A DNA stretch of 55,633 bases from a virus (Duplodnaviria; Caudoviricetes). The stretch lies in IMG/VR virus record IMGVR_UViG_3300024239_000352, positions 1 to 55,633 of that record; one strand, given 5' to 3'. Every line of letters starts with the position of its first letter. Position 1 is the stretch's first letter. The position numbers were made by a program, and so were the translations under genes. The notes beneath the pieces are model-generated. The model had not been told where the DNA came from. It saw only the letters and a program-made list of their open reading frames with translations, and did not search any database. This document shows positions 10,592 to 44,965 of the stretch, piece by piece.

Positions 10592-11779
10592 ATGGCAAGA
10601 AGAGAAAAAACAGAAGAAGCCGAAGTTTCAACCAAAAAGTCTGAAGTCGACAGCATGATGAAAGACCTAATCTCCTCTATCAATAAGGAATTTGGTCAGC
10701 GTATAGCTTACAACTTGTCTGAGATGGATGCTCCAACGGTTGTTAAGCGCTGGATTGATACTGGTTCAGTTCAACTAAACTATGCTATCAGAAACGCCAT
10801 GGAAGGTGGTTATCCTGAGGGCCGCATCATTGAGATCAGCGGCCTTCCTTCCTCTGGCAAGTCTCACCTTGCCTACCACGCCGCAGCTATGGTTCAACAA
10901 CAGGGCGGTCTTGTCGTTTATATCGACACAGAAAATGCCACTCCCGTTTCCAAGCTGGCAGACATGGGCGTCGATGTTCGCAAGCGATTTGTTTATTGCG
11001 ACTCACACTGCACAGAGGAGGTCTTCTCCATCATCGAGTCGACCATCGTAAAAGCAAAGCAGATCCTGGAGAAGAACATCCCCATCCTCGTCATCTGGGA
11101 CTCGGTGGCAGCAACATCACCCAAGGCCGAGCTGGACGGCGACTATGACCAAAACTCCATCGGTCTTCAGGCGCGTGCAATCTCAAAGGGCATGCGAAAG
11201 ATCACAGGTGTCATCGGTCAGAATAACGTGACGCTCCTCTGCATCAATCAGCTTCGTGATAACATCGGCGTTATGCATGGCGATCCAGCTACAACACCCG
11301 GTGGAAAGGCGATTCCATTCCATTCATCGGTCCGCATTCGCCTCGGCAGTGGTAATCAAGTCAAGGACAAGGCAGGTAATCCTATCGGTATCCACACAAC
11401 AGTCACCATCAAGAAGAACAAGGTTGCCGCCCCTTTCCGCAAGTGTGAGTTTGACATCATCTTTGGAAAGGGCATCGTTGAAGATGAATACCTCTTCGAT
11501 GAGGTCAGGTCACACTGCAAGGCAAATGGTCCTGTAAAGCGTGACGGCCTTGAGATCAACATTAGCGGCGAAGGAGCATGGAAGGAACTCACTGTCATGA
11601 GCACAAAGACAGGTGAGATGATTGTAGAAAAGAAGTTCTACAAGTCTGAATTCGGTGCAATGTTGAAGGATCAAAGCTACAGGAGCCACCTGTTGACGGC
11701 GATCGATGCGGCGTTGGTTGTTTCAGGTGGTGAACCATCTGGTGAAGGTGACGGAGAGGGAGGAATGTCAGATGAGTGA
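10592..11779 (+). CDS. recA: RecA/UvsX recombinase
   Basis: GRIIEISGLPSSGKS; YIDTE; IWDSVAA; INQLR; TPGGKAIPFHSSVRI; KNKVAAPF. Confidence 0.95.
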   Translation: MARREKTEEAEVSTKKSEVDSMMKDLISSINKEFGQRIAYNLSEMDAPTVVKRWIDTGSVQLNYAIRNAMEGGYPEGRIIEISGLPSSGKSHLAYHAAAMVQQQGGLVVYIDTENATPVSKLADMGVDVRKRFVYCDSHCTEEVFSIIESTIVKAKQILEKNIPILVIWDSVAATSPKAELDGDYDQNSIGLQARAISKGMRKITGVIGQNNVTLLCINQLRDNIGVMHGDPATTPGGKAIPFHSSVRIRLGSGNQVKDKAGNPIGIHTTVTIKKNKVAAPFRKCEFDIIFGKGIVEDEYLFDEVRSHCKANGPVKRDGLEINISGEGAWKELTVMSTKTGEMIVEKKFYKSEFGAMLKDQSYRSHLLTAIDAALVVSGGEPSGEGDGEGGMSDE

Positions 11780-15467: not shown

Positions 15468-15528
15468 CAATCAGCAACTTTTGAAGTATAGTTATCAACC
15501 TCAAGTAAACCAAAAAGCGGAGATCAAG

Positions 15529-18111
15529 ATGAACACGTTCACATACAACGAAGCATACGAAGCGTCTTTAAAGTACTTCAACGATGACGAGCTTGCTGCC
15601 TCAGTTTTCGTGTCGAAGTACGCCTTGCGTGACAGCGAAGGAAACATTCTTGAAAAGACTCCAACAGACATGCACCTCCGCCTCGCCCGTGAGTTTGCTC
15701 GAATCGAAGCGAAGTATCCTAATCCGCTTTCTGAAAAAGAAATCTTTTGTCTTCTTGCTGATGTCGATCACATCGACATTTCTGAGCGTGCCGTGATGAC
15801 CTTAGAGCAACTTGCCTCGGCGTCACGCGGTGTTGGTGCGGTTGTTCCGCAGGGGTCTCCTATGTCCGCCATGGGCAATCCATATAAGCTGCAGTCTCTT
15901 TCAAACTGCTTCGTCATTGCATCACCTCAGGATTCTTATGGAGGCATTCTTTTTGCCGATCAGGAGCAAGCGCAGATCATGAAGCGGCGCGGGGGCGTCG
16001 GTTTCGACGTTTCGACTATTCGTCCGAAGGGGATGTTGACGGCCAACGCCGCAGGAACAACCGATGGCATCGGTGTCTTCATGGAACGTTTCTCCAACAC
16101 CTGCCGTGAGGTGGCGCAAGGAGGTCGTCGTGGTGCATTGATGCTTACGATCTCGGTGATGCACCCAGAGGTAGAGACCTTCATCAACATTAAGAGGGAC
16201 CTGAAGAAGGTAACAGGTGCAAACATCTCAGTTCGTCTCACCGACGAGTTCATGAATGCGGTCAAGGCTGATTCTGACTTCACGCTACGTTGGCCGGTTG
16301 AATCCTCAGTTGAGGAGGCTAAGGTCACCAAGGTCGTCAAGGCCCGGGAGATCTGGAGTCAAATCATCGATGCAGCCTGGACATCAGCCGAACCCGGCCT
16401 TCTCTTCTGGGACACAGTCAAGAAGATGACGCCCACTGAAGCGTACGCTTCAAAGGGCTATGCAAACGTCTCCACCAATCCATGTGCAGAACTCATCCTT
16501 AGCCCATATGACTCTTGTCGTCTGCTCCTCGTTAACCTCGCAAAGTTCGTTAAGGACACATATCTTCCTACAGCGTCGTTTGACTTCGATAGGTTCAAGA
16601 AGGTCTCAGCGAAGGCGCAGAAGCTGATGGATGACCTCGTCGACCTTGAGATCGAGGCAGTTGATGCAATCCTTGCAAAGATTGAAGCAGACCCAGAGTC
16701 ACCCGACGTCAAGCTTTCCGAGGTTAATCTTTGGAAGAAGATTCGGACAGCGGCAAGCGGAGCACGTCGAACTGGTCTTGGCATCACAGGAATTGGTGAT
16801 GCATTGGCATCGATCAATGTTGTTTATGGCACTCCGGAGTCGGTGAGCAAGACCGAAGAAATCTACAAGACATTAGCTCTTTCTGCCTATCGATCATCAG
16901 TTGATATGGCCAAGGATCGTGGTTCATTCCCGGTCTATGATTGGCAGCTTGAAAATGATAGCCCATTTTTGCAACGCCTCATGGAGGCTGACAAGGGTCT
17001 TTTCGTTGACTGGATGAAACATGGTCGTCGAAACATCGCCCTTCTTACTACAGCACCGGCAGGATCAGTCTCTTGCCTCACACAAACCACAAGTGGCATC
17101 GAACCCGCATATCTTCTTTCCTACACCCGTCGTAAGAAGATCAATCCAAACGATACGGCATCTCGAGTCGATTTCGTAGATCAACTCGGTGACAAGTGGC
17201 AGGAGTACAAGGTCTACCACCACGGCTTCAAGAGGTGGATGGATGCCACAGGCAAGACCGATGAACAGATTGCCGAGTCTCCGTACTGGAAGGCAACAAG
17301 CAATGACGTTGACTGGACCATGTCTGTCAAGCTACAAGCCGCCGCACAAAAGTGGGTCTGTCATGCCATCTCCAAGACGTGCAACCTTCCTAATGACGTA
17401 ACTCGTGAGGTTGTTGCAGACGTCTACATGACCGCATGGGAGGCAGGTTGCAAGGGATTCACAGTTTACCGCGATGGTTGCCGCACAGGTGTCCTAGTCC
17501 AGGATCCACCGAAGGAAGAAAAGAAGGCAGTCGATGACCAACCCGAGACCATGGTAGAAAACCACGCTCCAAAGCGCCCGAAGGAACTACCATGTGATAT
17601 TCACAGAATAAATGTGAAGGGTTCTGAGGGTCAGGAATCATACCTCGTCCTCGTCGGCAAGCTCGAGGACAAGCCCTACGAGATCTTCTGCGGCCTATCA
17701 TCACATGTTGAGGTACCGAAGAAGGTCAAGAGCGGACTCCTTGTCAAGAACGGTAAGAAGGATGGCGTTGCGACATACAACCTTCAGATCCCCCTCGGCG
17801 ACGATGATCAACTTGTCTTCAAGGACATCGTTGAGCTATTCTCCAACCCAAATCATGGTGCCTTCACAAGGTCACTTTCACTCGCACTTCGCCACGGTGT
17901 TCCTGTTCAATATGTCGTTGAACAGCTCCAGAAGGACAAACTCAGCGACATGCAGAGCTTCTCTAGGGTCCTTGCAAGGGTGCTGAAGGGATACATTCCT
18001 GATGGTGTCAAGTCAACGTCTGACAAGGTTTGCCCTGAATGTACGTCTAATTCTCTTGTCTACAAGGAAGGTTGTGTAACTTGCGCATCGTGTGGCTGGA
18101 GTAAGTGTTGA
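15529..18111 (+). CDS. nrdJ: Class II (B12-dependent) ribonucleotide reductase
   Basis: LSNCFV; GGRRGA; TNPCAE; APAGS; SGIEP; ISKTCN; KGFTVYRDG; C-terminal CPEC..CASCGWSKC; no beta subunit adjacent. Confidence 0.92.
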   Translation: MNTFTYNEAYEASLKYFNDDELAASVFVSKYALRDSEGNILEKTPTDMHLRLAREFARIEAKYPNPLSEKEIFCLLADVDHIDISERAVMTLEQLASASRGVGAVVPQGSPMSAMGNPYKLQSLSNCFVIASPQDSYGGILFADQEQAQIMKRRGGVGFDVSTIRPKGMLTANAAGTTDGIGVFMERFSNTCREVAQGGRRGALMLTISVMHPEVETFINIKRDLKKVTGANISVRLTDEFMNAVKADSDFTLRWPVESSVEEAKVTKVVKAREIWSQIIDAAWTSAEPGLLFWDTVKKMTPTEAYASKGYANVSTNPCAELILSPYDSCRLLLVNLAKFVKDTYLPTASFDFDRFKKVSAKAQKLMDDLVDLEIEAVDAILAKIEADPESPDVKLSEVNLWKKIRTAASGARRTGLGITGIGDALASINVVYGTPESVSKTEEIYKTLALSAYRSSVDMAKDRGSFPVYDWQLENDSPFLQRLMEADKGLFVDWMKHGRRNIALLTTAPAGSVSCLTQTTSGIEPAYLLSYTRRKKINPNDTASRVDFVDQLGDKWQEYKVYHHGFKRWMDATGKTDEQIAESPYWKATSNDVDWTMSVKLQAAAQKWVCHAISKTCNLPNDVTREVVADVYMTAWEAGCKGFTVYRDGCRTGVLVQDPPKEEKKAVDDQPETMVENHAPKRPKELPCDIHRINVKGSEGQESYLVLVGKLEDKPYEIFCGLSSHVEVPKKVKSGLLVKNGKKDGVATYNLQIPLGDDDQLVFKDIVELFSNPNHGAFTRSLSLALRHGVPVQYVVEQLQKDKLSDMQSFSRVLARVLKGYIPDGVKSTSDKVCPECTSNSLVYKEGCVTCASCGWSKC

Positions 18112-30009: not shown

Positions 30010-31092
30010 ATGAACAGGGCAGTTTGTTTTGACGATGTTCTTTTGGTCCCGCAGTATTCAGAAATTGAATCACGCTCAAGCGTTGATCTGTCAGTTCCTG
30101 GATTTGATACGTCATTTATGAACCTTGTTGAAGGAAAGCCTCATCTTACGTGTCCAATTGTCGGATCACCAATGGACACGGTGATAGGTCCAGTTGCAGC
30201 TGCCGTCCTTGCGGATGTGGGAGGATTCGGTGTCTTGCATCGATATTGCTCGATCGAAGAAACACGCCAGGCGTATCTTGAAACGACATCGATGGGCAAG
30301 ACATCATCAAACAACGTTATGGTGGCGATTGGTGCAACAGGCGATTATCTTGAACGCGCCGCTGCTTTATATTCTGTTGGGTGTCGCGCTTTTTGTGTTG
30401 ATGTTGCACACGGCCATCACGTAAATGTAAAGAATGCGCTTTCCGCTCTTCGATCAAGATTTGGCAAATCTGTTCATATCATGACAGGCAACGTCGCGAC
30501 CCTCGAGGCATTCAACGCATTGGCCGACTGGGGTTCTGATTCGATTCGTGTTGGGGTAGGCGGTGGTTCAATGTGCACGACTCGTGTCAGGACAGGTCAC
30601 GGGATTCCAACGTTGCAATCAGTAATCGATTGCGCAAAGTCGGATCGTGACGTCTACATAATCGCCGATGGAGGCATTCGAAACTCTGGTGACGCAGTGA
30701 AAGCCCTCGCAGCCGGTGCCGACATGGTGATGCTAGGCTCAATCCTTGCAGGCCATGATGAATCCCCAGGTGAGATTGTTGATAAGCGCGGTGTTCCGCA
30801 CAGTCCTAACTGGAAGAATGACATTCCGCTTTTCAAAAAATTTCGAGGAATGGCTTCACGCGAAGCGCAGCTTGAATGGCGTGGAAAGGTTTCCGTTGTT
30901 GAAGGCGATTCAACGCTTGTACCATATAAGGGCTCAATGAGACAAACCCTGATCGAATTGATGGATGGAGTCCGATCAGGGCTATCTTATTCAGGCGCCA
31001 GGACCATTAGAGAACTTCGGGCCAAGGCAAAATTTATTGGCGTTTCTTCAAGCGGTGTTAGAGAAAATGGATCACACGGTAAGAATTCTTGA
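30010..31092 (+). CDS. IMPDH/GMP reductase family enzyme (probably GMP reductase)
   Basis: FDDVLLVP; SPMDTV; DVAHGH; GGSMCTTR; ADGG; RGMAS. No CBS domains and no Arg-Tyr flap dyad. Confidence 0.85.
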
Positions 31093-31710
31093 TTACTTTT
31101 CAGATGGCCACTTACCTATAGCTTTATGCATCATCCATGCTGCCGCTGCGGCAGGTTCTTTTGCCCAACCTGAAACTTTTTGCATCTTTTGAGCAAAAGT
31201 TTTTGTTCCTTTAAGTATTTTTTGTGCCGCTTTTTTTGAAGGACCTTTTCTTTTCTTTGATTCATTCATTCCGCACTCACACATGGATTCATTCATTCCG
31301 CACTCATCACAGACCTTATCAGCCTCTTTTAAGTACTCTTCTGATGCTTCTTCAGAAGCCATAGTATACCAATTTGAATCCGAGGTATCGCTGCATCCAC
31401 ACGATCCTGCTGCAGGCATTTGGTTGCAGTGCGGACATTCTTCACCACATCCACATGAGCCGTCTACAACCATCATTCCGCAATCATCGCAACAATCGGA
31501 GTCATCTTCTCCGACGCTAAGCACGCCTTCTTCATCTTCATAACCTTCATTAGATTCATCACATCCACACATGCCTTCAACGACAGGCATTTCACAGTCA
31601 GGACATGTTTCTTCATCACGAACGCCTACGGCTCCAACGGAGGTTATGCCTGGCACTTCGCCGATAGGTGTACCAAATTTTTCATTTAAAAGGCTGCTGT
31701 AATCTTTCAT
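31093..31710 (-). CDS. Cys-rich acidic late protein with a basic C-terminal domain
   Basis: Repeated CxxC..CxC units; N-terminus MKDYSSLLNE; ATATTTA upstream on the minus strand. Confidence 0.7.
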   Translation of the reverse strand: MKDYSSLLNEKFGTPIGEVPGITSVGAVGVRDEETCPDCEMPVVEGMCGCDESNEGYEDEEGVLSVGEDDSDCCDDCGMMVVDGSCGCGEECPHCNQMPAAGSCGCSDTSDSNWYTMASEEASEEYLKEADKVCDECGMNESMCECGMNESKKRKGPSKKAAQKILKGTKTFAQKMQKVSGWAKEPAAAAAWMMHKAIGKWPSEK

Positions 31711-31757
31711 GTCCCTTAAATATAGACAGAATCTAAAAAAACGTTATAATATTTCTT

Positions 31758-32711
31758 ATGAAATCTATATTAGTGACAGGTGCTGCAGGTTTCATAGGCA
31801 GCTATCTTGTAGAGCATCACTTACAGATAGGCGATAAAGTATATGGAGTTGACAATTTTTGTTCTTCTAGCCCTGTCTCAAGGCATCACAGAAGCGCTGT
31901 TTCTAACAAGAATTATACGTTCAGCAGGCAGGACATAGCATCTTCTGCATTTATTCAAACGCATGCACATCTGTCTTTTGACCTGATCTATAATTTTGCT
32001 TGTCCTGCCTCACCGCCTATCTATCAAAATGTTCCAATTGAAACGATGATGACATGTGTCGTAGGAACAAACAACGCGCTGTCTTTGGCGTCAGCCAAAA
32101 CCGTCTTTGTTCAGGCGTCGACGTCGGAGGTCTACGGCGACCCAATGGTGCATCCTCAACCAGAAGCCTATAGGGGCTGTGTCAACTCATATGGGCCCAG
32201 ATCATGTTATGATGAAGGTAAACGTGCCGCTGAAGCCTTATGCTTTGATCACACACATAAACGAGGCATCGACGCGAGGCTAGTTAGAATATTCAATACG
32301 TACGGCCCTAGGATGGACCCTCACGACGGCAGAGTCATAACAAATATGATTGGCCAAACATTGGCGGGAAAGCCGATGACAATCTACGGAGATGGTTTCC
32401 AGTCACGTTCTTTTTGTTATGTCACTGACATGATTAGAGGCATTCTTGCGTTAGGCAATCTTTCAAGCAATCCGAACACACCTATAAATGTTGGTAACCC
32501 TAGCGAATTTACGATCATTGAATTGGCTGAAAAAATCAAATTAAGATTGGGAGGAAGCATAGAATTTCTTCCTCTTCCAAAAGACGATCCAAAACAACGA
32601 CAACCTGACATAACGCTTGCCAAAAAAATACTGGATTGGGAGCCAAGAATTGACCTAGATATTGGATTGGATCGAATGATCGAGTACATGAGAGCGACCA
32701 ATGACGCATGA
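31758..32711 (+). CDS. NAD-dependent epimerase/dehydratase, UDP-glucuronate decarboxylase-like
   Basis: TGAAGFIG; ACPASP; ASTSEVYGDP; CYDEGKR; RIFNTYGPRM; DDPKQRQPDI. Confidence 0.9.
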   Translation: MKSILVTGAAGFIGSYLVEHHLQIGDKVYGVDNFCSSSPVSRHHRSAVSNKNYTFSRQDIASSAFIQTHAHLSFDLIYNFACPASPPIYQNVPIETMMTCVVGTNNALSLASAKTVFVQASTSEVYGDPMVHPQPEAYRGCVNSYGPRSCYDEGKRAAEALCFDHTHKRGIDARLVRIFNTYGPRMDPHDGRVITNMIGQTLAGKPMTIYGDGFQSRSFCYVTDMIRGILALGNLSSNPNTPINVGNPSEFTIIELAEKIKLRLGGSIEFLPLPKDDPKQRQPDITLAKKILDWEPRIDLDIGLDRMIEYMRATNDA

Positions 32712-33003
32712 GCTGATTATTTTCGCTGCTTTTCAATGTGGTTTTTTCCTTGGTTTTGTGCTTAGTCGTATTACAAAAAATAGTTCTTCGAATTCGCAAG
32801 AAGAGCCTAAGGTGCGTTTTGGTAGTCGAAATGAAACGATGACGAAAATGAAGATTTTGAAGATCGATGAAGCAAGGTACGTCACAAAAGTTTCAGACGA
32901 CAAATTCGTCAAGACAGGAAACGAACTAGGCAAGACCTCCGCTGTCGATGATGACATAGGTTCATCTGTTTCTAGGCTTGCACAACTGAAGCAACGTAAG
33001 TAA
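32701..33003 (+). CDS. Small single-TM membrane protein
   Basis: N-terminal hydrophobic helix; C-terminal VSRLAQLKQRK. Confidence 0.65.
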   Translation: MTHELIIFAAFQCGFFLGFVLSRITKNSSSNSQEEPKVRFGSRNETMTKMKILKIDEARYVTKVSDDKFVKTGNELGKTSAVDDDIGSSVSRLAQLKQRK

Positions 33004-33016
33004 TAATAGCAATTCA

Positions 33017-33847
33017 ATGGATCTAAACGTTGTCCACAGGGGCACAGCCCTTGACTTGCTTTGTTCGATTCCTAATGAATCAATCGATCTTATCTACACC
33101 GATCCTCCGTTCGGCACAGGAAACACACAGACGATGGACCGGAAGAAGGCCGGGAAAACCGTCTCTAAAATTGAGTATAGCGATAAGTACGAGAATTACC
33201 TCGATTTTCTTGAGCCTCACCTGATTGAAATGCACAGGGTTCTGAAACCTACTGGTACCATGTACCTCCACATGGACTGGAGGTGGGTACACTATGCTAA
33301 GGTGATGTGTGATGGAATCTTTGGAATGGAAAACTTCCTCAACGAGGTTGTTTGGTCCTACAACTTTGGTGGACGAGGAAAGGATCGTTGGCCTCAGAAG
33401 CATGACACCATCCTTGTCTACACCAAGGAGATGGGCAAGCACACTTTCAATTGGAAAGATATAGACAGGATTCCATATGCCGCACCAGAGCTACAGTATG
33501 TTGGTAGATCGAGGGAAGAGGCAGAGAAAAGAATAGCTGAAGGTCAGGTTCCAACAGACGTGTGGAGCATGAGCATCGTAGGAACAGCGTCCAAAGAGAG
33601 AATAGGATACCCCAACCAGAAACCAATTAAATTAATGAAGCGTGCAATTGTTGCATCGTCAAATGAAGGAGACATTGTTCTTGATCCTTTTGGAGGGTCG
33701 GGTTCAACAGCGGCCGCGGCTATGGAAGCAAATAGAAAATTCATTACAGGTGATTCAAGCCCAGACGCAATCCAAACAATGCGCAACAGGTTTACAGGGC
33801 TTGACGTAAAATTTATAGAAAGTAAATTAGGAGAAAACAATGGCTAA
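33017..33847 (+). CDS. Orphan N4C/N6A DNA methyltransferase (beta class)
   Basis: IYTDPPF; YPNQKP; DPFGGSG. Confidence 0.92.
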   Translation: MDLNVVHRGTALDLLCSIPNESIDLIYTDPPFGTGNTQTMDRKKAGKTVSKIEYSDKYENYLDFLEPHLIEMHRVLKPTGTMYLHMDWRWVHYAKVMCDGIFGMENFLNEVVWSYNFGGRGKDRWPQKHDTILVYTKEMGKHTFNWKDIDRIPYAAPELQYVGRSREEAEKRIAEGQVPTDVWSMSIVGTASKERIGYPNQKPIKLMKRAIVASSNEGDIVLDPFGGSGSTAAAAMEANRKFITGDSSPDAIQTMRNRFTGLDVKFIESKLGENNG

Positions 33848-34844
33848 AGGTTTAGACGTCGGTACATCATTCATCGTTCTTGCATCTGAGGGTTCAAAGG
33901 GCAAGGTGGTCTACAAGGACTTCCGGGACGCATTCTACGTCCTCAAGCCAACAACACCGATCGCCGCCAAGATGATCGAAAAGGGTTTGGCTGGCAAGAC
34001 ATTTGTCAAGGACACTGATGGTTCATTCATCCTCCTCGGCTCCGACGCAATCGAAAAGGCCGTGGAGAGAAACGACTCGGCGAAGCGTCCAATGTACCGT
34101 GGTGTCGTATCATCCAAGGAAAAGGATGCCCGTCGCATTTTGACATACATCCTCAAGGAGGTCGCAGCCTCACCCTCCGAGCCCGGTGAAAAGCTAGTCT
34201 TCTGCGTCCCTGCTCAACCAATCGATCAAGAAGACGACGATTTCGACGTTGGTTACCATGAGGACGTCATCGTCAAGCTCCTCGCCGAGGTCGGTTACGA
34301 TGCTCGTGCCATCAACGAGGCCGAGGCGCTTTGCTACTCTGAACTCGACAAGGATGACTACACAGGTGTCTGCCTCTCATGGGGCGCAGGTATGGTCAAC
34401 GTCTGCGTCATGCTCAACGGTGAACCTGTGGTCAAGTTCTCCACCACAAAGTCCGGTGATTGGGTCGATCGTATGTCCGCAGTCGCGACAGGTGAGACAG
34501 ATTCAATTGTCCAGGCCGAAAAAGAGTCAGGAGAGTTCACCGTCGGTCAACCCAACGATAACCAGGTCCTCGCCGCTGTGGCAGCCTATTATGAACGTCT
34601 TATCGACTACACTACGAAGCAACTTGCAGCGGCGATGGACGGCCACAAGTCACTTCCAAAATTCAAGGGTGATCTTCCAGTCGTGGTTGCAGGTGGTACA
34701 TCCAAGGCCAAGGGATTCGTCGACATGTTTGCTTCAAAGTTGAAGGACAATGGCTTCCCACTTCCTGTCAAAGAGGTACGCCACGCAGCAGATCCCCTAC
34801 ATGCCGTTGCTCGTGGATGTTTAATCGCAGCCCAGGTGATGTAA
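33840..34844 (+). CDS. Actin-like ATPase, volactin-like
   Basis: GLDVGT (phosphate 1); RPM; VPAQP; INEAEA (connect 1); SWGAGMVN (phosphate 2); VAGGTS (adenosine); DPLHAVARG (connect 2). Confidence 0.85.
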   Translation: MAKGLDVGTSFIVLASEGSKGKVVYKDFRDAFYVLKPTTPIAAKMIEKGLAGKTFVKDTDGSFILLGSDAIEKAVERNDSAKRPMYRGVVSSKEKDARRILTYILKEVAASPSEPGEKLVFCVPAQPIDQEDDDFDVGYHEDVIVKLLAEVGYDARAINEAEALCYSELDKDDYTGVCLSWGAGMVNVCVMLNGEPVVKFSTTKSGDWVDRMSAVATGETDSIVQAEKESGEFTVGQPNDNQVLAAVAAYYERLIDYTTKQLAAAMDGHKSLPKFKGDLPVVVAGGTSKAKGFVDMFASKLKDNGFPLPVKEVRHAADPLHAVARGCLIAAQVM

Positions 34845-34873
34845 AAATTAAAGATTAGGAGTACAATAGCAAC

Positions 34874-35239
34874 ATGGATAAGCTTGAAGAGATGTACAAT
34901 CAGCAGCGGGACTTCAACATTCTGCTTCGTGACGAGAGACAGTATCCAGATTTTCCACTGGATCTTTCTCTGAAAAAGAACCAGCAGATCCTCAAGGGAC
35001 TCGCCCACGAATGCATGCATGAGCTCTTTGAGGCAAATCACCTGCTAAAGAACAGTAAGAACCACCGCGTCACAGACATCAAAGATTTCGATCGTGAATC
35101 CTACAAGGAAGAGCTCGTCGACGCCCTACACTACTTCTTCGGCATTGTAATTTATAGCGGAATTTCGGCCGAAGAACTTCATGAGGCTTTCATGAAGAAA
35201 GGCGCAATCAACGTTCAGCGTGTAAAGAATGGATATTAA
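34874..35239 (+). CDS. All-alpha NTP pyrophosphatase (dimeric dUTPase/MazG-like)
   Basis: HELFEA..K.H; KEELVDALHY; K..IN..R...GY. Confidence 0.8.
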   Translation: MDKLEEMYNQQRDFNILLRDERQYPDFPLDLSLKKNQQILKGLAHECMHELFEANHLLKNSKNHRVTDIKDFDRESYKEELVDALHYFFGIVIYSGISAEELHEAFMKKGAINVQRVKNGY

Positions 35240-35255
35240 ATGTTAGGATAAGAAC

Positions 35256-36203
35256 ATGACAAAGCCTATCGATTGGGCGAATCTGCCTGACGCATTGAAG
35301 CGTCAGGCAGATTTTTCATCCCTATTTTTTGACAACAGCAAGATTAGCCTAGAACAGAAGAAAGAGCTTCTGAAGACTTTCATTCTGTCTTTACATTCAG
35401 AGACGACAGGAATCTGTGAGGCTATCGACTATAAAGAGCATAGGCTTCAGAATAAGCCTGTTGATGTTCAGAAAATTCTTTATAAATCGGTTGATGCATA
35501 TCGCTATATTTTAGCGATGTTGAATCTCTGGGGTATTAGCGCTTCAACATTTGAGATGGCGTTGGCCCAGAAGGACGATTTTCTTCACTATCGATATAGA
35601 CTTTCTCAAAAGAGGTGGGAAGGGCAGCCCGTCGTACTGTTTGACATGGATGATGTCCTTGCTGAATTTAGGAAATCGTTCTGCGGGTATGTCACCGCGT
35701 TGACAGATCACTTCATCGATCCCGAAAGCGATGAGTACTACAACGTTAGGGAGTTCAAGAGACTAAACATCAATAGCGAAAATTTCTTCAAGAAATTCAT
35801 CGACGGACACGGATTTCTGTTGCTTGAAAGGAACGACCAGTACTTTAATTTACTTCAGCATTTAAAGTCCCAGGGCTACTGGATTCAGATTGTGACGGCC
35901 CGCCCTGAAACAAATCTGACGTGCTTTTATGACACTTACTCCTGGCTGGCCCGCCACGGTGTCGATGCCGATGGCGTTGCATTCACACCTGAAAAATTCG
36001 TCTGGTTGTCTGAACAGCCTTTTTACGCAAGGGGCAGGTACTTTGCTGTAGATGATTCAGCGAAGCATGCTGCCGAGTATGCCAAACACGGCGTCGTCAC
36101 GATTGTGCCTGAAAAACCTTATAACAAAGAGGTTAACGGGGTAAACAACGTTGTGTATGTTCCGCGGAACGCGAATCCTGTAGAATTCATTCCAGTTTTA
36201 TAA
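35256..36203 (+). CDS. Degenerate dNTP-PPase-like domain fused to a HAD 5'-nucleotidase-like domain
   Basis: N-terminal ILYKSVDAYRY replaces EELVD; C-terminal FDMDDVL, IVTAR, K, VDDS HAD motifs. Confidence 0.75.
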   Translation: MTKPIDWANLPDALKRQADFSSLFFDNSKISLEQKKELLKTFILSLHSETTGICEAIDYKEHRLQNKPVDVQKILYKSVDAYRYILAMLNLWGISASTFEMALAQKDDFLHYRYRLSQKRWEGQPVVLFDMDDVLAEFRKSFCGYVTALTDHFIDPESDEYYNVREFKRLNINSENFFKKFIDGHGFLLLERNDQYFNLLQHLKSQGYWIQIVTARPETNLTCFYDTYSWLARHGVDADGVAFTPEKFVWLSEQPFYARGRYFAVDDSAKHAAEYAKHGVVTIVPEKPYNKEVNGVNNVVYVPRNANPVEFIPVL

Positions 36204-37187: not shown

Positions 37188-37251
37188 TTTGGACGGTCTT
37201 GACTAGTTTGAATATGTATTTACATGAAAAGAAAATTCAAGACCGTCCAAA
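37188..37251 (+). promoter_or_regulatory. 15-bp perfect inverted repeat enclosing the homing-endonuclease start codon
   Basis: TTTGGACGGTCTTGA (37188-37202) and TCAAGACCGTCCAAA (37237-37251); ATG 37224 and ATATGTA/TATTTA lie in the loop. Confidence 0.75.
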
Positions 37252-38051
37252 TCACTTGTGAACAATGTGGGAAAATATCTTTAAAACAAAAAGGCCGCCG
37301 ATTTTGTAATACGTCTTGCGCGAATAAATGGTTGCATGCCCATGGCAAACTGAGCGCAAAAGCAATCATTGGAATGAATATGTCGTTGGAATCGCTGATT
37401 CAGCGATATGGAGATCTGTTAGGTCTTCAAAAATACGAAGAATTCATTAAAATAATGAGTGCTGCCACATCTGGGCAGAAAAATCCAATGTATGGTAAAA
37501 ATTACCAAACACATGGATTAAAAAAAGAGGGTGAAAAAAGAAGAGGAAAAACTGAAGTTGAACACTACGGTTTAGAGAAAGCGAAAGAAATTTCAAAGAA
37601 AAAGTCAGAAGCTTCATCTGGAAAAAACAACTCCATGTATGGTAAGCCCTCACCGAAATTATCGGGTAAAGGAACCAAAGGCTACTATAAAGGACATTAC
37701 TTTAGAAGTTTATTAGAGCTTTTGTGTATGAAACACTTAGAAGAAGATGGAATAGATCTAAATGACATCGATTATGAAAATTTTGTGATAAAATATGTTT
37801 CTTACGATGGTCGTCAAAGGACATATAGACCTGATTTTTTTATTCCAAGCAGAAATCAATTAGTTGAGGTAAAACCTTTTAGATTGATTTCTACCCCCTT
37901 GAATACACTTAAGTTCGAAGCTGCTCTTTCTTTTTGTAAAGAAAGAAACATTGAGTTTAAAGTTTTGACAGAAAAGTCTTTTACTTTATCAAAAGAAGAC
38001 GCAGTAAAAGATCAGAATGTCGTTCTTTTGGAGGCAAAAAATGAGAAATAA
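37224..38051 (+). mobile_element. Free-standing homing endonuclease (NUMOD3-like repeats plus PD-(D/E)xK nuclease)
   Basis: CEQC..FCNTSC; GQKNPMYGK and GKNNSMYGK; FRSLLE; YRPDF; VEVKP; AT-rich. Confidence 0.8.
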
Positions 38052-39182: not shown

Positions 39183-39353
39183 ATGACCATGAAACAATCG
39201 AAGATCTCGTTAAATGAAGAGACTCATCGAATGCTGAAGGTGTACTGTGCGAAGCACGGATTATTGATGAGTCAATTCGTTTCGGAGATCATTCGAGAGA
39301 GGATTGGCTATGTGGACGACAAAAACGGTTCAGGAGATGCCGACAACCCCTAA
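39183..39353 (+). CDS. Small ribbon-helix-helix-like DNA-binding protein
   Basis: SKISLNEETHRMLKVYCAKHGLLMSQFVSEIIRE. Confidence 0.65.
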   Translation: MTMKQSKISLNEETHRMLKVYCAKHGLLMSQFVSEIIRERIGYVDDKNGSGDADNP

Positions 39354-39969
39354 ACTGATGGGGATCTATCAAATCACTAATATAGTCAACGGGAAAAGGT
39401 ATATTGGAAAAAGCAAGAATATACGTAGGCGGTGGATGGAGCACATTCGCAATAATCGAATAGGAAATTCAGTTAATAAACACTTCCAATGTGCTTGGAC
39501 CATGTATGGTGAAGATAAATTTTTATTTGAAGTTCTTGAACAAATCCAAGATGAAGCTCAGCTTGGATTGAGAGAAAAGATTCTTGTAGAAGAGAAAATG
39601 CCTGAGTATAATGTCTCTATTGTAGACGAAGGTCAATGGACTTTAACAAACGAAAAAATTGAGAAATGTCGACAAATTAGACTTAATGCTGATCCTTCTT
39701 GGAACAAGAAGATAGGTAATTCTCTTCGTGGAAAAAAGAAAAGTGACGAACATGTAAGTAAGATGCGAAAAAGTCTTACTGGAAGGAAAGCAACCCCTGA
39801 ACAGATCGAGAAAATTCGTAAGGCTTCAACAGGTCGACTTGTTTCTGAGGATGCAAAAAAGAAAATTGCAGACAAGGCAAAAGGAAATCAAAGATGGAAG
39901 CTTCGAACGCCACAGTGGCGGGAGAACATGATTGCAGGCGTCAAGAAAAGATGGGAAAGGTACAGAAAA
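39337..39969 (+). mobile_element. GIY-YIG homing endonuclease with NUMOD3-like repeats, in frame with the downstream NDT gene
   Basis: GIYQITNIVNGKRYIG..RW..H; FEVLE; YN; SDEHVSKMRKS..G repeats; no stop before 39970. Confidence 0.85.
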
Positions 39970-40446
39970 ATGAAAAATGAAAATACTTTTGGTAAAAAAC
40001 TTGCATGCTATCTCGCTAGCGGTTGGTTTTCGCCCGATCAGGACAAGCAGCTGACAAAGCTCGAAAATGTATTTGACAGTCGAGCTGAGTGGATCTCTTT
40101 GGCTTCGCCACGAAGGATCTTCGTCTGCCCACCAGACGCATCCCTGGAGGTCCAAGACAGCGTCTTCAACGGCAATGTTGAGCACATCAAGAAGGCAGAT
40201 TTCTGTCTCGTCAACACGACATATCGTGATATCGGTACGATTTGGGAGGCTGGCGCTGCATATGCCTATGGCACAAAGATCGTTTACTTCTGCGAAAATC
40301 TTCCACCTGGTGCAAAGTTCAATTTGATGCTTAGTAGAAGCGGCATCAAGGTTTGCACTACATTCGAACAGCTCGAGGACTACCTTGAAAGGTGCAAGGC
40401 TGCCGGTGAGATGTTGTACGAACCCTACGACAAGGAAATTGAGTGA
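39970..40446 (+). CDS. Nucleoside 2-deoxyribosyltransferase / nucleotide N-hydrolase (NDT/RCL/MilB-like)
   Basis: YLASGWFS; N..HI..AD; DIGTIWEAGAAYA; FNLML; own ATG at 39970. Confidence 0.82.
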   Translation: MKNENTFGKKLACYLASGWFSPDQDKQLTKLENVFDSRAEWISLASPRRIFVCPPDASLEVQDSVFNGNVEHIKKADFCLVNTTYRDIGTIWEAGAAYAYGTKIVYFCENLPPGAKFNLMLSRSGIKVCTTFEQLEDYLERCKAAGEMLYEPYDKEIE

Positions 40447-40472: not shown

Positions 40473-40502
40473 AAGGCCATTGTGAAAATCGATGGCCTTT
40501 TT
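40473..40502 (+). terminator. Rho-independent terminator
   Basis: AAGGCCATTG..CGATGGCCTT followed by a T run. Confidence 0.7.
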
Positions 40503-40526
40503 AGCATTTGTATATATGTATTTTTC

Positions 40527-41447
40527 ATGGACACAATAGATACACCAAAAATTGTATGCGAGATTTGCAATACTGCATTTACACACAAGAACACACAGAT
40601 AAGAACGTGCAGTAAAAAATGCAGTTATGAACTGAGAAATAAAACAAGACATCATGTAAAGCATGAACCTGTTCAAAAGAAATGTATTGAATGTCTTGAA
40701 ACCTTCCAAGACTATAGTAAAAAGAAGTTAGTGATCAAATGCCAAAATTGTGTTTATGCAAACATGGCATCAAAAAGAAAACAGAATGGAAGTTATCATC
40801 AAACAGACGAAAGAAAATTACAGCAAAGCCTGCTGATGAAACGTCTTCATCAGGAAAGAGATTTTATCTCTGATGAAGGCATACGTCAATTGTCAGAGAA
40901 AGCTAAAAGCAGGTGGCAGTCAGATGATTATAGGTCGAGTGTCAAGAAACGCAGCCTAGAGAAATATGGCGTAGAGCATTGGACGAAAACTGAAGAGGCC
41001 AGGAAACAACTCAGCGAAAGATCAAAAAAATATAGGGCCTCAGATGAAACGAAGCAGAAGATGAGGGTTAGTGCTGCTAAACGCCTACGTGAAGGTCGTA
41101 ATTTGCACCCATTCCACGGTAAGGGTGGGTACAGACAAGACATTGATCTTTACGTAAGAAGCAGATGGGAGGCTAACTTTGCGAGATATTTGCTTTTGAC
41201 GAATCAAAAATTTGAGTATGAAAAAGTGAGTTTTTCGCTTCGAGATGGAAGAACATATACACCTGATTTCAAAGTTGAAAATATGCTGTATGAAATCAAA
41301 GGATGGTGGACACAAGCTGCAAAAGAAAAATTTGAAATCTTTAAGGAAGATTATCCCGAAGCCGTCGTGCAAATAATAGACGAGGCAAGGTACAATCAGA
41401 TCCAGGATCAGTATGCTGCTTTGATTCCAAACTGGGAATATAAATGA
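40527..41447 (+). mobile_element. Free-standing homing endonuclease (zinc fingers, NUMOD3-like, PD-(D/E)xK)
   Basis: CEIC..CSKKC; CIEC..CQNC; RSRWEANFA; YTPDF; EIKG; ATGA overlap with dnaE. Confidence 0.8.
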
Positions 41448-44400
41448 CCAACATTCTTAGGCCACCTGCGCAGTTCATCAGCCTTCACTCGCACTCACAT
41501 TTCAGTACTTATGATGGGTTAGGGCAACCATCAGATCACATTGATTTTTGTGTCCAAAATGGATTGTCAGGTTGGTCTCTTACCGACCATGGCAACGGCA
41601 ACGGATTGGCCCATGCTCACGCTCACGCCAAGAAGATCATCAAGTCGAAGGGGCACAAGTTTAGGCAACTCTACGGTGTTGAGTTCTACTTCGTTCCTGA
41701 CTTGGCCGATTGGAAGATCAGGTACGACCTCTCCAAGAAAGAGGACTCGAAGAAGGGCGACGATGAAGAAGAAGCAGGCCTGGTCGTTGAGGACGCTGAT
41801 GAGACACGTTCCGACGGAGATCGATTCGTCGATGTCAACAAGCGTTACCACCTTGTGGTTGTCGCAAAGAACAGTGTAGGTCTTTCCAACCTGTTCACTC
41901 TCGTCAAGAAGAGCTACGTCGACGGTTTCTACAAGTTTCCTCGAATCGACTTCAAACTTCTCAAAGAACACGGCGAAGGCCTTGTTGTCTCGACTGCATG
42001 CGTCGGTGGCTATCCCAGCGGCGTCATCTACAGCGAGTTTGGCGACAAGAAGTTCGCCGAGCTTGATCCTTCGCTGGTCGACGACGAAGTCGTGAGGAAC
42101 AGGATCAGAAACAAGCTGGAGAACGTCGTCGATCGCTTCGTCGATTGTGTTGGACACGAAAACTTCTTCCTGGAGCTTCAGTTCAACAAGCTGCCTGCCC
42201 AGGACCTGACCAACAGGATGATGATCGAGACGGCGGCATCAACGGGTTGTAAGCTTCTTTCCACCGCAGACTCACACTATCCAGAACCTGCCCTGTGGGA
42301 GGCCAGGGAGATCTATCGGCAGCTGCAACCTGGTCGCATGAAGATTGGTGTAGAGCCTAAGCCTCTTCCTAAGTTTGAGGAGCTGAAGTGTGAGCTGTAT
42401 CCGAAGAACGCTCAGCAGATGTGGGACGAATATCTAGGCCGTCGCGAAGCCTATGATTGGTACAAAGGAACAGAAGACGCCGTCCGCACCTCCATGGAGA
42501 ATGGCCACGATATCGCCTGGAACCTTTGTGAGGAGATCTGGTTCGACACTTCGGCCAAGCTTCCTACCTTCGGAACACCTGAAAAATCAGGTTTCAAACA
42601 ACTCGTTGACCTCGTCAAGGAAGGTTTGGTCGCTGAGGGTCTCGACAAGAAGCCTGACTACGTTGCCCGTGCCAAGATGGAGTTGGACGACATCAAGTAC
42701 CTGAAGTCTGAGGACTACTTCTTGACCCTGCAGAAGGTGTTCAAGCTGGCCGAAAATCGAACGTTGCCAGGTTCAGGTCGTGGCTCAGGCGCCGGTTCGC
42801 TTGTCAACTACCTGCTAGGCATTACCCACGTCGATCCCCTCAAGTATGACCTGCTGTGGGAAAGGTTCATGGGGCGGCACAGGGTCGGATATCCCGATAT
42901 CGACACAGACGTCGGTGACCGTGACAAGCTGATCGAAGCAGCCAGAGAAATCTTCGGCAATGACGCTGTCGTCCCGGTTTCCAACTTCAATACCTTGAAG
43001 CTGAAGTCGCTCGTCAAGGACGTCTCCAAGTTTTACGGAGTTCCTTTCGATGAGGTCAACGCTGTCACAGGCCCACTCGAGCGTGAAGTGGAGCAGAAGT
43101 CGCGTGATCCCAACATGGAAAAGTCCATGTTCGTCCTGAAGCACGAGGACTGCATGGAGCACTCCGAGAACTATAGGAACTTCATGGAAAAGTATCCTCA
43201 GGTCGAAGAGAAGATCAGGACGTTATTCATGATGAACCGCTCAGTCGGCCGCCATGCCGGTGGTGTCCTGATCTGTCCTCAGCTCGAGAAGCACATGCCT
43301 CTCATCACTGTTCGAGGTGAGCTTCAGACACCATGGACCGAAGGTGTCAACATTCGAAATCTTGAGGAGAACGGATTCCTCAAGTTCGACTTCCTCGGCA
43401 TCAAGCAGATGAAGATGGTGGAGGATTGCATCGCCCGAATCCTGAAGCGCGAGCTGGGTCGTGAGCCGATCTTCGAAGAGATCAAGAAGTTCTACGATGA
43501 GAAGCTCAACTGTCGATACGTCGAACCGAACGACGACAAGGTCCTGAACCACGTCTATCGCAGCAATCGATGGCCAGGCATCTTCCAGTTCACATCTGAA
43601 GGCGCCCGGAAGTTCTGTCACGAGGTCCAGCCGACATCGATCGAGGACATCGGTGTCGTCACGGCAATCTATCGTCCAGGTCCACTCAAGGCCAACGTTC
43701 ACAAGAAATACGTCGAAGCAAAGAAGGACGCATCCAAGGCACAGTACGATCACCCGACCATCAAGGATGTCCTTGGCACGACCTACGGGTTCATTGCCTT
43801 CCAGGAGCAATTCATGATGTTGGCACAGAAGCTCGCCGGATTCTCACCAGGTGAATCCGACAAGATGCGCAAGACTCTTGTCAAGAAGGACCTGACGTCC
43901 CTTGGCAAGAAGTCCGAAGAGAAAGAGGCATTGGAAAAGAAGTTCATCGATGGCTGCATCACAGTCAGCGGCATGGAAAGGTTCAAGGCGAAGGAGCTGT
44001 TCGACAAGATCGCGTTCTTCTCGTTGTATGGTTTCAACAAGTCCCACGCAATTGCCTACGCAATCGATTCGTACTACGGCGCCTGGTTGATGACCTACTA
44101 TGAGACCGATTGGTTGGCAACATGCCTTCAGTCTGAAAATGCCAACGTTGAAGGCCTGGCATGGATGATCTCCGAGATCAAGCAACTTGGCTACAAGACG
44201 TCGACGCCTGACATCAACCACTCTACGAACGAATGGACGTGGTCCGAGAAGCTTCACGCTTTCGTCCCGCCCCTGTCTTCGCTGAAGGGAGTCGGTGAGT
44301 CAGCCGTCGAGGAGATCATTGCAAATCGTCCATACAAGTCGATCGAGGACATGTTGTGGACGCCGGATGGCGTGTGGCGCCACTCCAAGTTCAACAAGAA

Positions 44401-44965
44401 GGCCATCGATGCCCTGCTGAAGATGGAGGCCTTTGAGTCATTGAGGGATCCTGAAACGTGTATCTGGGGCAACTACAGACAGCTCCACTTTGCAATCGTT
44501 GAAAACATGGATACCATCAAAAAATCCACAAAAAAAGATCCGCTGTCTGGTCAGAAGAAATTCTTTGAATTATTGGAGTCGTCACGAGAGATGCCCGATT
44601 GGACCCGTATTGAGAAGATTGAGAATAAGATTTCTTGCTCCGGCACGATGGACATTAGCATGTGTGTTGAGTATGATATACTGCAACGTTTGCAGAACAA
44701 GGGAATTAGGTCTCTTGACGAGATTGATGGAACAGATATTTACTGGTTTGTCGTAAAGAACTCCATTCCAAAGACGACAAAGAATGGAAAGGCATACCTG
44801 CTGTTGGAGGCATTGAGTCCTTCAGGCAAGGTTTCAAAGATCTTCTGTTGGAAATGGGATGGAGAACGGCAGATTGTGCCTTACACGCTGTGTTTGGCTG
44901 AGGTTTCTAAGTCTGACTTTGGAATGTCCACTACATTTTGGAAATTGAATGAGGTTGATCAATGA
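41444..44965 (+). CDS. dnaE: DNA polymerase III alpha subunit (family C)
   Basis: PHP motifs HSHS..DG, TDHG, GVE, ADSHY; GRGSGAGS; PDIDTD; LKFDFLG; FQEQ; FNKSHA. Confidence 0.95.
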   Translation: MTNILRPPAQFISLHSHSHFSTYDGLGQPSDHIDFCVQNGLSGWSLTDHGNGNGLAHAHAHAKKIIKSKGHKFRQLYGVEFYFVPDLADWKIRYDLSKKEDSKKGDDEEEAGLVVEDADETRSDGDRFVDVNKRYHLVVVAKNSVGLSNLFTLVKKSYVDGFYKFPRIDFKLLKEHGEGLVVSTACVGGYPSGVIYSEFGDKKFAELDPSLVDDEVVRNRIRNKLENVVDRFVDCVGHENFFLELQFNKLPAQDLTNRMMIETAASTGCKLLSTADSHYPEPALWEAREIYRQLQPGRMKIGVEPKPLPKFEELKCELYPKNAQQMWDEYLGRREAYDWYKGTEDAVRTSMENGHDIAWNLCEEIWFDTSAKLPTFGTPEKSGFKQLVDLVKEGLVAEGLDKKPDYVARAKMELDDIKYLKSEDYFLTLQKVFKLAENRTLPGSGRGSGAGSLVNYLLGITHVDPLKYDLLWERFMGRHRVGYPDIDTDVGDRDKLIEAAREIFGNDAVVPVSNFNTLKLKSLVKDVSKFYGVPFDEVNAVTGPLEREVEQKSRDPNMEKSMFVLKHEDCMEHSENYRNFMEKYPQVEEKIRTLFMMNRSVGRHAGGVLICPQLEKHMPLITVRGELQTPWTEGVNIRNLEENGFLKFDFLGIKQMKMVEDCIARILKRELGREPIFEEIKKFYDEKLNCRYVEPNDDKVLNHVYRSNRWPGIFQFTSEGARKFCHEVQPTSIEDIGVVTAIYRPGPLKANVHKKYVEAKKDASKAQYDHPTIKDVLGTTYGFIAFQEQFMMLAQKLAGFSPGESDKMRKTLVKKDLTSLGKKSEEKEALEKKFIDGCITVSGMERFKAKELFDKIAFFSLYGFNKSHAIAYAIDSYYGAWLMTYYETDWLATCLQSENANVEGLAWMISEIKQLGYKTSTPDINHSTNEWTWSEKLHAFVPPLSSLKGVGESAVEEIIANRPYKSIEDMLWTPDGVWRHSKFNKKAIDALLKMEAFESLRDPETCIWGNYRQLHFAIVENMDTIKKSTKKDPLSGQKKFFELLESSREMPDWTRIEKIENKISCSGTMDISMCVEYDILQRLQNKGIRSLDEIDGTDIYWFVVKNSIPKTTKNGKAYLLLEALSPSGKVSKIFCWKWDGERQIVPYTLCLAEVSKSDFGMSTTFWKLNEVDQ

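Follow-up and report, generated by a model that had tools for sequence, protein, structure and literature searches.

A conserved volactin-family actin gene and a small, putatively membrane-directed partner in uncultured jumbo phages

Results

A volactin-family actin gene on a jumbo-phage fragment

The stretch of DNA analysed here, which we call the window, is an entire IMG/VR virus record (IMGVR_UViG_3300024239_000352; 55,633 bp). Because CheckV estimates a completeness of 17% at this length, the full genome would measure roughly 300 kb, and the contig is a fragment of an uncultured huge (jumbo) phage. It carries a gene for an actin of the volactin family and, upstream on the same strand, a gene for a small protein that we refer to as the partner. 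A DNA methyltransferase gene sits between the two. The features of this locus are as follows.

32701..33003, plus strand: partner gene, 100 amino acids (aa): hydrophobic N-terminal helix, variable linker, conserved basic C-terminal domain
32710..32766, plus strand: hydrophobic N-terminal helix of the partner (residues ~4-22, from Kyte-Doolittle hydropathy), a putative membrane anchor
32854..33000, plus strand: conserved C-terminal domain of the partner (residues ~52-100, from a 32-sequence alignment and a complex model), a predicted actin-binding tail
33017..33847, plus strand: N6/N4 DNA methyltransferase gene (Pfam N6_N4_Mtase, E 9.5e-50), between partner and actin
33829..33833, plus strand: Shine-Dalgarno sequence AGGAG of the actin gene, 6 nucleotides (nt) 5' of the ATG, read directly
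33840..34844, plus strand: volactin-family actin gene, ATG start, 334 aa (assigned from Pfam, motifs, fold and tree)
33855..33866, plus strand: phosphate-1 motif D6-V-G8-T9 (D6, G8 and T9 invariant in 32 diverse members)
34377..34400, plus strand: phosphate-2 motif S180-W-G-A-G-M-V-N187 (S180, G182, G184 and N187 invariant in 32 members)
34455..34469, plus strand: motif G206-D-W-V-D210 (G206, D207 and D210 invariant in 32 members)
34692..34700, plus strand: adenosine motif G285-G286-T287 (G285 and G286 invariant, T287 at least 90% conserved in 32 members)

The actin ATG at 33840 overlaps the stop codon of the methylase gene. The Pfam Volactin profile (PF25216) aligns along its whole length with the encoded protein (residues 1-331 on profile positions 1-321 of 321; E 1.2e-64; 219.3 bits at a cutoff of 35), and a whole-genome profile search returned the identical result. 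By contrast, Salactin (23.6 bits) and MreB (PF06723; 20.9 bits at a cutoff of 27, over residues 77-126 only) both scored below their Pfam cutoffs. The only PHROG matches were to families of unknown function (E 0.019 and 0.067), and a sequence search of the PDB gave nothing significant (best entry 8r2n, E 0.06).

An earlier note on this DNA had recognised in the same open reading frame (ORF) a phage-encoded actin closer to volactin than to MreB or ParM, on the strength of eight motif patterns. The ORF is real and appears at the same coordinates in the ORF list, the contig bears out its phage origin, and the Pfam scores favour volactin as proposed. Seven of the eight patterns match as typed: MAKGLDVGT (residues 1-9), RPMYRG (83-88), PAQPID (124-129), INEAEALCYSEL (158-169), GDWVD (206-210), VAGGTS (283-288) and PLHAVARG (319-326). 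The eighth was off by one position, since the protein reads TGVCLSWGAGMVNVC, with three residues rather than two separating TG from S. At the level of sequence, such agreement lies far beyond chance. Across the 32-member alignment, the nucleotide-binding residues D6, G8, T9, S180, G182, G184, N187, G206, D207, D210, G285, G286 and G326 show no variation whatever. A further claim, that the gene has the codon usage of a core gene, holds for the GC content at third codon positions (0.59, near that of PolIII-alpha, ThyX, RecA and ribonucleotide reductase, RNR) and fails for the profile of relative synonymous codon usage, which ranks 37th of 39 and is thus among the most deviant. Judged by its motifs and profile match, the ORF 33840..34844 encodes a genuine ATP-binding volactin-family actin with intact nucleotide-binding motifs.

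Predicted fold of the actin

AlphaFold2 modelled the actin from a 32-row alignment with a mean predicted local distance difference test (pLDDT) score of 95.6 and a predicted template-modelling (pTM) score of 0.92. The predicted four-subdomain actin fold and the five conserved nucleotide-binding motifs are those of polymerising actins. Its best matches among solved structures were the BeeR filament (template-modelling score on the query, TMq, 0.73) and MamK (0.72), and MreB accounted for most of the next twenty or so listed PDB matches (TMq 0.60-0.69); the MreB-RodZ complex was also among the structural matches. For ranks 1-24 of this search 22 entries were listed, and all 22 are polymerising actins or models thereof (BeeR, MamK and MreB). 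EutJ, at rank 25, is the one non-polymerising protein among the top listed matches, all of which have E<=1e-12; below the MreBs come EutJ, eukaryotic actin, crenactin, FtsA and PilM.

These rankings bear on the idea that the protein is a non-polymerising ATPase of the ASKHA (acetate and sugar kinases/Hsc70/actin) type, chaperone- or kinase-like, which merely shares the actin fold. The rank of EutJ speaks for it, as does a library of predicted viral structures that contains no close relative of the actin: here the top matches were Hsp70 nucleotide-binding domains (TMq at most 0.63, identity at most 16%), which are non-polymerising ASKHA proteins, along with a few phage actin-like proteins such as Gp506 of Bacillus phage G. 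Arguing the other way, every PDB entry listed above EutJ is a polymerising actin or a model of one, and the 334 aa comprise the actin core only, with neither a substrate-binding nor a lid domain. In addition, the Volactin profile matches at full length, and the protein on which that family was founded assembles into filaments in living cells (available part of PMC10869688). The near-total conservation of the protein's surface across phages would also be typical of filament formers. We consider an enzyme of this kind very improbable; grouping with such proteins, which the earlier note had named as evidence that would overturn its reading, was not seen among solved structures.

Relation to haloarchaeal and bacterial volactins

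We scanned prokaryotic genomes, one per species, with a 7-row alignment and obtained 398 relatives, of which 80 were retained. Haloarchaea account for 65 of them (for example Haloferax gibbonsii), with 36-39% identity over residues 1-332; for comparison, identity is 22-23% to two salactins and 20-23% to five MreBs. Ten carry bacterial labels (Acidobacteria, Omnitrophota, Planctomycetia, Desulfobacterales, Fermentibacteria and Patescibacteria) and are 35-41% identical. The other five (L082-L086) are 71-76% identical and lie on contigs of 2-9.5 kb from metagenome-assembled genomes (MAGs) with inconsistent labels (bacterium, Chitinophagia, Flavobacteriales, Alphaproteobacteria and Thermoplasmatales). 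All four of these MAG contigs that include upstream DNA (L082-L085) carry the partner-actin cassette of the phages, described below, and phage-like neighbours. Because the contigs are short, their labels inconsistent and the phage cassette present in four of four, we read them as likely phage fragments mis-binned into cellular genomes; the same likely applies to a database protein labelled Chlamydiae (P0062), which is 88% identical to the actin.

For phylogeny we took only near-full-length matches and, of the representatives, only those of 315-400 aa (91 of 150); a redundancy filter then left 131 of 259 rows. FastTree split the volactin-family rows from salactin and MreB (support 96). We built a second tree, an IQ-TREE quick tree under LG+C20+F+G4, from 61 hand-picked rows of the 131; it does not place salactin. 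In it the actin falls into a short-branched viral clade of nine rows (support 95) with P0121 as sister (99), and both lie inside a subclade of 21 rows (96). The haloarchaeal volactins form a compact twig (99) within a separate subclade of 31 rows (95), which also contains named bacterial genes and both of the GenBank huge-phage genes introduced below. Phage members occupy at least three positions in the volactin-family tree. The IQ-TREE topology does not place the actin in one subclade with HVO_2015, as orthology would require, and it rules out a recent capture from haloarchaea. Because the subclades are separate, the actin is a member of the volactin family and neither an orthologue of the Haloferax gene nor a recent haloarchaeal acquisition. 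The profile search and phylogeny that had been proposed as a check therefore uphold family membership and put the phage gene in a different major subclade from the haloarchaeal ones.

Spread, conservation and selection

The actin is widespread among uncultured phages. A word-indexed protein search returned 1,792 proteins at E<=1e-3 among 5,316 candidates, and the best 120 matches are all 81-98% identical to the actin, on contigs of up to 284 kb. In IMG/VR, 309 of 332 pattern-matched stretches encode a relative; 80 of the 309 were retained as our viral locus set, and identity across 79 viral rows is 75-93%. The long relatives range from 198 to 298 kb and include records of 297,894 bp (with direct terminal repeats; 100% complete), 224,357 bp (100%) and 197,309 bp (96%); in each of five long records the actin is present as a single copy. 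An exhaustive search of 50%-identity representatives found 979 clusters at E<=1e-3 and 289 at E<=1e-30. Since the best representative is only 57% identical, the whole group at 75-98% identity falls into one or two clusters of a large and diverse family. The ESM Atlas automatically names clusters 'Volactin domain-containing protein', and two such clusters are 93-100% viral (Uroviricota). Among 50,697 phage records, tblastn with the actin gave two matches only, both in unannotated 'uncultured phage' genomes (485 and 595 kb; 36.6% and 31.8% identity).

The actin is under extreme purifying selection. In seven hand-picked loci of the 80, the non-synonymous divergence (dN) of the actin is 0.05-0.16 at saturated synonymous sites, and the one pair for which a ratio of non-synonymous to synonymous divergence could be computed gave 0.058. 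In the 10 of 80 loci compared for synteny, neighbouring genes are mostly 25-88% identical, and conservation of the actin equals or exceeds that of RecA, DnaB and RNR.

Several members of the wider family have unusual architectures. Three genes of about 700 aa (P0122, P0133 and P0151) carry inteins in all three cases tested (Intein_splicing, LAGLIDADG_3 and Hint_2), inserted at or near the phosphate-2 and GDW motifs, and about 13 more members of ~530-770 aa among the 50%-identity representatives match in two stretches. In P0175 the volactin domain is fused to Wzz, GNVR and a ParA/MinD-like ATPase, of the envelope-polysaccharide co-polymerase type. P0155 has a weak N-terminal match to a ParB helix-turn-helix (HTH) domain (21.1 bits, below the cutoff of 22.6), and several members carry long unannotated N-terminal extensions.

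A small partner gene is the only constant neighbour of the actin

Upon examination of the DNA upstream of the actin, we found the partner gene, which is the most informative feature of the locus and which the earlier note had passed over. A hidden Markov model (HMM) of its C-terminal domain matches in 79 of the 80 viral loci, and the sole locus without a match (L063) lacks all DNA upstream of the actin, since its sequence starts within that gene. The HMM likewise matches all four MAG phage contigs that have upstream DNA. In other loci the partner ends 0-100 nt 5' of the actin start. The last ~45 aa are conserved, with the consensus I.IDD.KFVT.V.TD..LG...DDI..S..KLAQLKK.K, and across 32 partner sequences I55, L93 and K97 are invariant, as is G18 within an 'LG(Y/F)..GR' motif of the N-terminal helix. 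The protein evolves fast overall (dN 0.54-0.78 in the same seven loci) while the tail is retained. No Pfam family is common to the 32 members (16 families match one member each), and PHROGs gave no match. In 55 of 84 partners, including the one in the window, the best 19-aa Kyte-Doolittle window reaches at least 1.6. We infer that the partner is a membrane anchor or adaptor of the actin.

Among the 76 viral loci examined, none has a methylase between partner and actin; in one of the loci (L066) a 95-aa ORF sits there instead. The methylase gene therefore looks like a lineage-specific insertion into the cassette rather than a part of the actin-partner module. The cassette genes are tightly packed and co-directional, and sigma-70-like promoter sites are not enriched (6 found, 7.9 expected). 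The cassette follows an epimerase gene in the window, is flanked by recA-side genes and the primase/helicase in L062 and L034, and in the G002 lineage has RuvB-like, glycosyltransferase and thioredoxin genes ahead of it and a subtilase behind. Because these surroundings differ between lineages, the partner is the only constant neighbour of the actin, and the earlier placement of the gene beside a replication operon is true of the window and does not extend to other lineages.

This context bears on the possibility that the protein is a DNA-moving actin of the ParM or AlpC type, whose filaments would push or carry phage genomes, for placement of replication sites or plasmid-like segregation, by way of a DNA-binding adaptor. 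A precedent exists in prophage CGP3, whose adaptor AlpA and actin AlpC are transcribed together and are required for the phage DNA to replicate efficiently (available part of PMC4446434). The cassette lies among replication genes in the window and in L062 and L034, the weak ParB-HTH match of P0155 and a ParA-like gene near one Omnitrophota volactin locus point the same way, and a membrane anchor is compatible with a second, DNA-binding partner. Against this stand the hydrophobic N-terminus of the partner and the lack of a DNA-binding domain in it by Pfam or PHROG matching, the position of the cassette outside replication modules in other lineages, and the absence of an iteron-like array from 31000-35500, where multi-copy repeats occur only inside coding sequence. 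We regard DNA movement as an unlikely role.

The partner tail is predicted to dock on the actin

We modelled the complex of the actin, supplied as an alignment, with partner residues 48-100 in three runs and alongside three controls. The interaction score ipSAE (interaction prediction score from aligned errors) was 0.73, 0.72 and 0.74 (median 0.73), compared with 0.00 for the best of the three controls. In a calibration, 58 of 80 solved complexes and 2 of 110 mismatched pairs reached this mark, counts that hold only roughly here because we supplied our own alignments. Contacts agree by at least 89% between runs. The predicted interface joins partner residues 68-99 with actin residues 17-28, 50-66, 99-108, 166-174, 193-195 and 318-333. 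In the model the tail helix lies in a groove bounded by helix 160-168, hairpin 186-202 and the C-terminal helix 322-333, and the stretch ahead of it runs along the first beta-hairpin of the actin. The complex model thus supports binding of the partner tail to the actin.

The groove beside the C-terminal helix is also the site at which ParM is bound by ParR, and actin by many actin-binding proteins; inside filaments it is mostly buried. A partner docked there would, for that reason, be expected to bind filament ends. End-binding of this kind would fit volactin filaments, which touch the membrane by their tips (available part of PMC10869688).

Partner-like tails beside other volactins

A membrane-type neighbour is also found beside haloarchaeal volactins. 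The same-strand gene upstream encodes a multi-pass membrane protein of ~300 aa, an ORF of this kind being present in 57 of 65 loci, and it is a DUF7139 protein in three of three tested. HVO_2016 of Haloferax, which adjoins the volactin gene, has been called CdpA-like, and in CdpA proteins a disordered linker joins a transmembrane domain to a small C-terminal domain (both from the available part of PMC12126565). The C-terminal regions of the haloarchaeal DUF7139 proteins carry 'VD.QV.GLK.LKGG' and 'VDDQT.KL.ELR', to which 'DDI..S..KLAQLKK' of the phage tail is similar. Aligning the phage partner with haloarchaeal DUF7139 by hhalign gave a weak match of 22 columns on the tail motif (E 0.0014, probability 17.6%), the partner HMM at E<0.01 found none of the 65 haloarchaeal loci, and Pfam returned no DUF7139 match for the phage partner. 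Because the alignment is weak and the HMM count nil at that threshold, we treat homology of the phage and haloarchaeal tails as a lead and not as a finding.

We also ran the partner HMM, with the HMMER filters off, over the cellular and distant-phage loci translated in six frames (14,308 segments). All the matches listed at E<=10 fall in genes adjoining the actin; ten are haloarchaeal DUF7139 proteins, and the others are the proteins downstream of the bacterial actins in L087, L088, L131 and L090 (Desulfobacterales; E 5e-5). Taken singly, the match in L090 alone is significant, and the ten from haloarchaea do not count as independent. In LR745208, inspection by eye shows a similar tail at the end of the ORF upstream of the actin, in a protein that lacks a hydrophobic N-terminus. 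These patterns weakly suggest a likeness of tails across bacterial and haloarchaeal volactin neighbours.

Tentatively, and with more doubt than conviction, we propose on this basis that volactins may carry an ancient, portable actin-binding tail, a short C-terminal amphipathic peptide that is first acidic and then basic, mounted on different anchors. Haloarchaea would use the four-pass CdpA-like HVO_2016, bacteria and other huge phages a soluble domain, and the jumbo-phage clade of the window just one membrane helix. On that view PhuZ and AlpC would be joined by the phage module as a third type of phage cytoskeleton, forming membrane-tethered filaments that organise infection in jumbo phages without a phage nucleus.

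Two further gene arrangements occur at bacterial loci. A conserved protein of ~175 aa lies directly downstream of the volactin-family gene in L087, L088, L090 and L091 (no Pfam match in the two tested), and in L131 a ParA-like gene and a coiled-coil protein lie upstream of it.

Other genes of the window

Pfam and annotation of the window's ORFs show a replication and nucleotide-metabolism gene set.

Replication genes: family-A polymerase fragment, RecA, DnaB-like helicase, class-II-type RNR, PolIII-alpha
Other genes: IMPDH/GMP-reductase-like gene, epimerase, N6/N4 DNA methylase, dUTPase_2-like gene, NT5C, ThyX
Homing-endonuclease-like genes: several
34874-36203, 3' of the actin: dUTPase_2/MazG-like gene, then an NT5C-type nucleotidase with a long N-terminal extension (Pfam matches)
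37224-38051, 39304-40446 and 40482-41447, between ThyX and PolIII-alpha: three homing-endonuclease-like genes, with TnsA-like, NUMOD3 and Endo-I domains; GIY-YIG fused to nucleoside 2-deoxyribosyltransferase; and an Endo-I-like domain
31093-31710, minus strand: Cys- and acid-rich ORF of 205 aa with internal direct repeats of 46-nt and 21-nt families

Because the replication genes are of the PolIII-alpha, DnaB and RecA type, the host is probably bacterial. No tRNA genes were found in the window. The ORF at 31093-31710 adjoins an IMPDH-like gene here and also in L002, L004 and L009 (46-47% identity), and has no Pfam or PHROG match. In the synteny table, PolIII-alpha, RNR and RecA of L004, L009 and L062 each come in two or three ORF pieces with endonuclease-like ORFs between them (the window counterparts lie at 10586-11779, 15391-18111 and 41444-44965), which suggests split genes, inteins or homing-endonuclease insertions.

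Discussion

The gene pair described here leads us to favour, with reasonable though guarded confidence, a membrane-tethered phage actin cytoskeleton that organises the infected cell. The phage would make the two proteins during infection. The partner would sit in the cytoplasmic membrane by its N-terminal hydrophobic helix and present its basic C-terminal tail to the actin, docking both on the first beta-hairpin and in a groove lined by helix 160-168, hairpin 193-195 and helix 322-333. The actin would polymerise with ATP, and, with the partner in the membrane and its tail on the actin, the resulting filaments would be tethered there, possibly by their ends. Their role in the cell may be to place replication or assembly sites or to reshape the host.

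A number of observations weigh against a membrane-tethered cytoskeleton. The anchor is less than clear-cut, as 27 of 84 partners reach hydropathy values of only 1.17-1.59, below the strict transmembrane criterion of 1.6 (two more are cut by contig ends), and the basis for a topology is a weak charge bias (the 15 residues that follow the helix have a median net charge of +1). The score of the complex is the model's own confidence, and the pLDDT of the partner within it is a modest 66-68. A methylase gene separates partner and actin in the window, and the variable genomic context gives no clue to a role. The partner HMM matched neither the haloarchaeal loci at E<0.01, as described above, nor the surroundings of the two distant GenBank huge-phage actins, and Hsp70 domains head the matches in the viral structure library.

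The infected cell could also be organised through its envelope, with a membrane-tethered actin taking over host shape or division in the manner of MreB/RodZ or FtsA, for instance enlarging the cell for a jumbo-phage burst. Volactin depletion delays the rod-to-disk transition in Haloferax (available part of PMC10869688), the structural matches of the phage actin include MreB and the MreB-RodZ complex, the partner is membrane-directed, and P0175 joins the family's domain to envelope-polysaccharide domains; the sub-cutoff Pfam MreB score is a point on the other side. We think such a takeover rather unlikely as the specific role, and it is a variant of the last step of the membrane-tethered cytoskeleton rather than a true alternative to it.

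The cytoskeleton proposed here does not appear to coexist with the one known from phiKZ-like phages. As the earlier note had advised, we looked for PhuZ and chimallin: neither tubulin (PF00091, PhuZ) nor chimallin (PF25677) scored over cutoff in any of the five long relatives or in the window, which covers ~17% of its genome, while phiKZ as positive control for chimallin gave 1121 bits. In the G002 lineage (L080, 8493-9155), ~1 kb upstream of the actin, a 220-aa ORF has a sub-threshold chimallin match (16.6-18.1 bits at a cutoff of 27, over profile positions 117-214 only), which is probably due to chance but notable for its place next to the cassette.

To our knowledge, the known phage cytoskeletons comprise one well-studied system, the PhuZ tubulin with its chimallin nucleus, and one prophage actin, AlpC. 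The phage volactin matches the core replication enzymes in its degree of conservation, occurs in many uncultured jumbo phages and comes with a small partner that is membrane-directed. Should the two proteins indeed form filaments tethered to the membrane, large phages would have a second means of organising the cells that they infect. The shared tail, if real, would offer a testable hypothesis for how Haloferax volactin attaches to the membrane through HVO_2016 by its filament tips. At ~100 and 334 aa, the two genes are small enough for work in Escherichia coli or in vitro.

Our search of the literature on volactin, salactin, phage-encoded actins and jumbo phages (with PMC10869688 taken without its supplements) found no description of a phage volactin or of this actin-partner pair. 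Judged by title or the start of the abstract, none of the volactin papers listed concerns phages, and the available part of the jumbo-phage review that matched 'actin homolog' names MreB only. A phage-encoded actin with an adaptor and the volactin family are thus both known kinds, and databases already label the family automatically in viruses; a phage volactin with a membrane-directed partner is new in the literature searched.

The closest known system is volactin (VolA, HVO_2015) of Haloferax volcanii, whose filaments in vivo are dynamic and contact the membrane with their tips (available part of PMC10869688). The phage actin belongs to the same Pfam family and aligns end to end with haloarchaeal orthologues at 36-39% identity, but its gene is viral rather than chromosomal, its hosts are probably bacteria and it lies in a different major subclade. 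Both actin genes have a gene for a membrane-type protein nearby, and the C-terminal tails of the two neighbours look alike, in a comparison that is weak. Unlike HVO_2016, with four transmembrane segments and ~300 aa, the phage partner has one hydrophobic helix and ~100 aa, and it gives no match to DUF7139.

Among phage systems, AlpC of the Corynebacterium glutamicum prophage CGP3 binds AlpA, a co-transcribed small adaptor encoded upstream (available part of PMC4446434), and the locus described here likewise pairs a phage-borne actin gene with a small adaptor-type gene upstream. AlpA binds DNA, whereas the phage partner is membrane-directed (available part of PMC4446434 for AlpA). AlpC probably belongs to a different actin family from the phage volactin, and CGP3 is a small temperate prophage, in contrast to the jumbo phages here. 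With PhuZ and chimallin of phiKZ-like phages (available parts of PMC7950403 and PMC4244570) the phage volactin shares its occurrence in jumbo phages and its presumed nature as a cytoskeletal polymer that organises the infected cell; it differs in belonging to the actin and not the tubulin superfamily, and in the lack of tubulin or chimallin over cutoff in the window and the five long relatives.

The solved actins of ParM/ParR, MreB/RodZ, MamK and BeeR (5ljv, 2wus, 8r2n, 4czm and others) have the same fold at a TM-score of about 0.65-0.73, but sequence identity to them is 13-22% and the MreB score is below cutoff. ParMRC and AlpACS differ further, in that the phage locus has no adaptor of a DNA-binding family and no centromere-like or iteron repeats in 31000-35500. 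The nearest likeness to ParM lies in how the partner may bind: as ParR does on the ends of ParM filaments, the predicted partner helix would occupy the groove beside the C-terminal helix of the actin.

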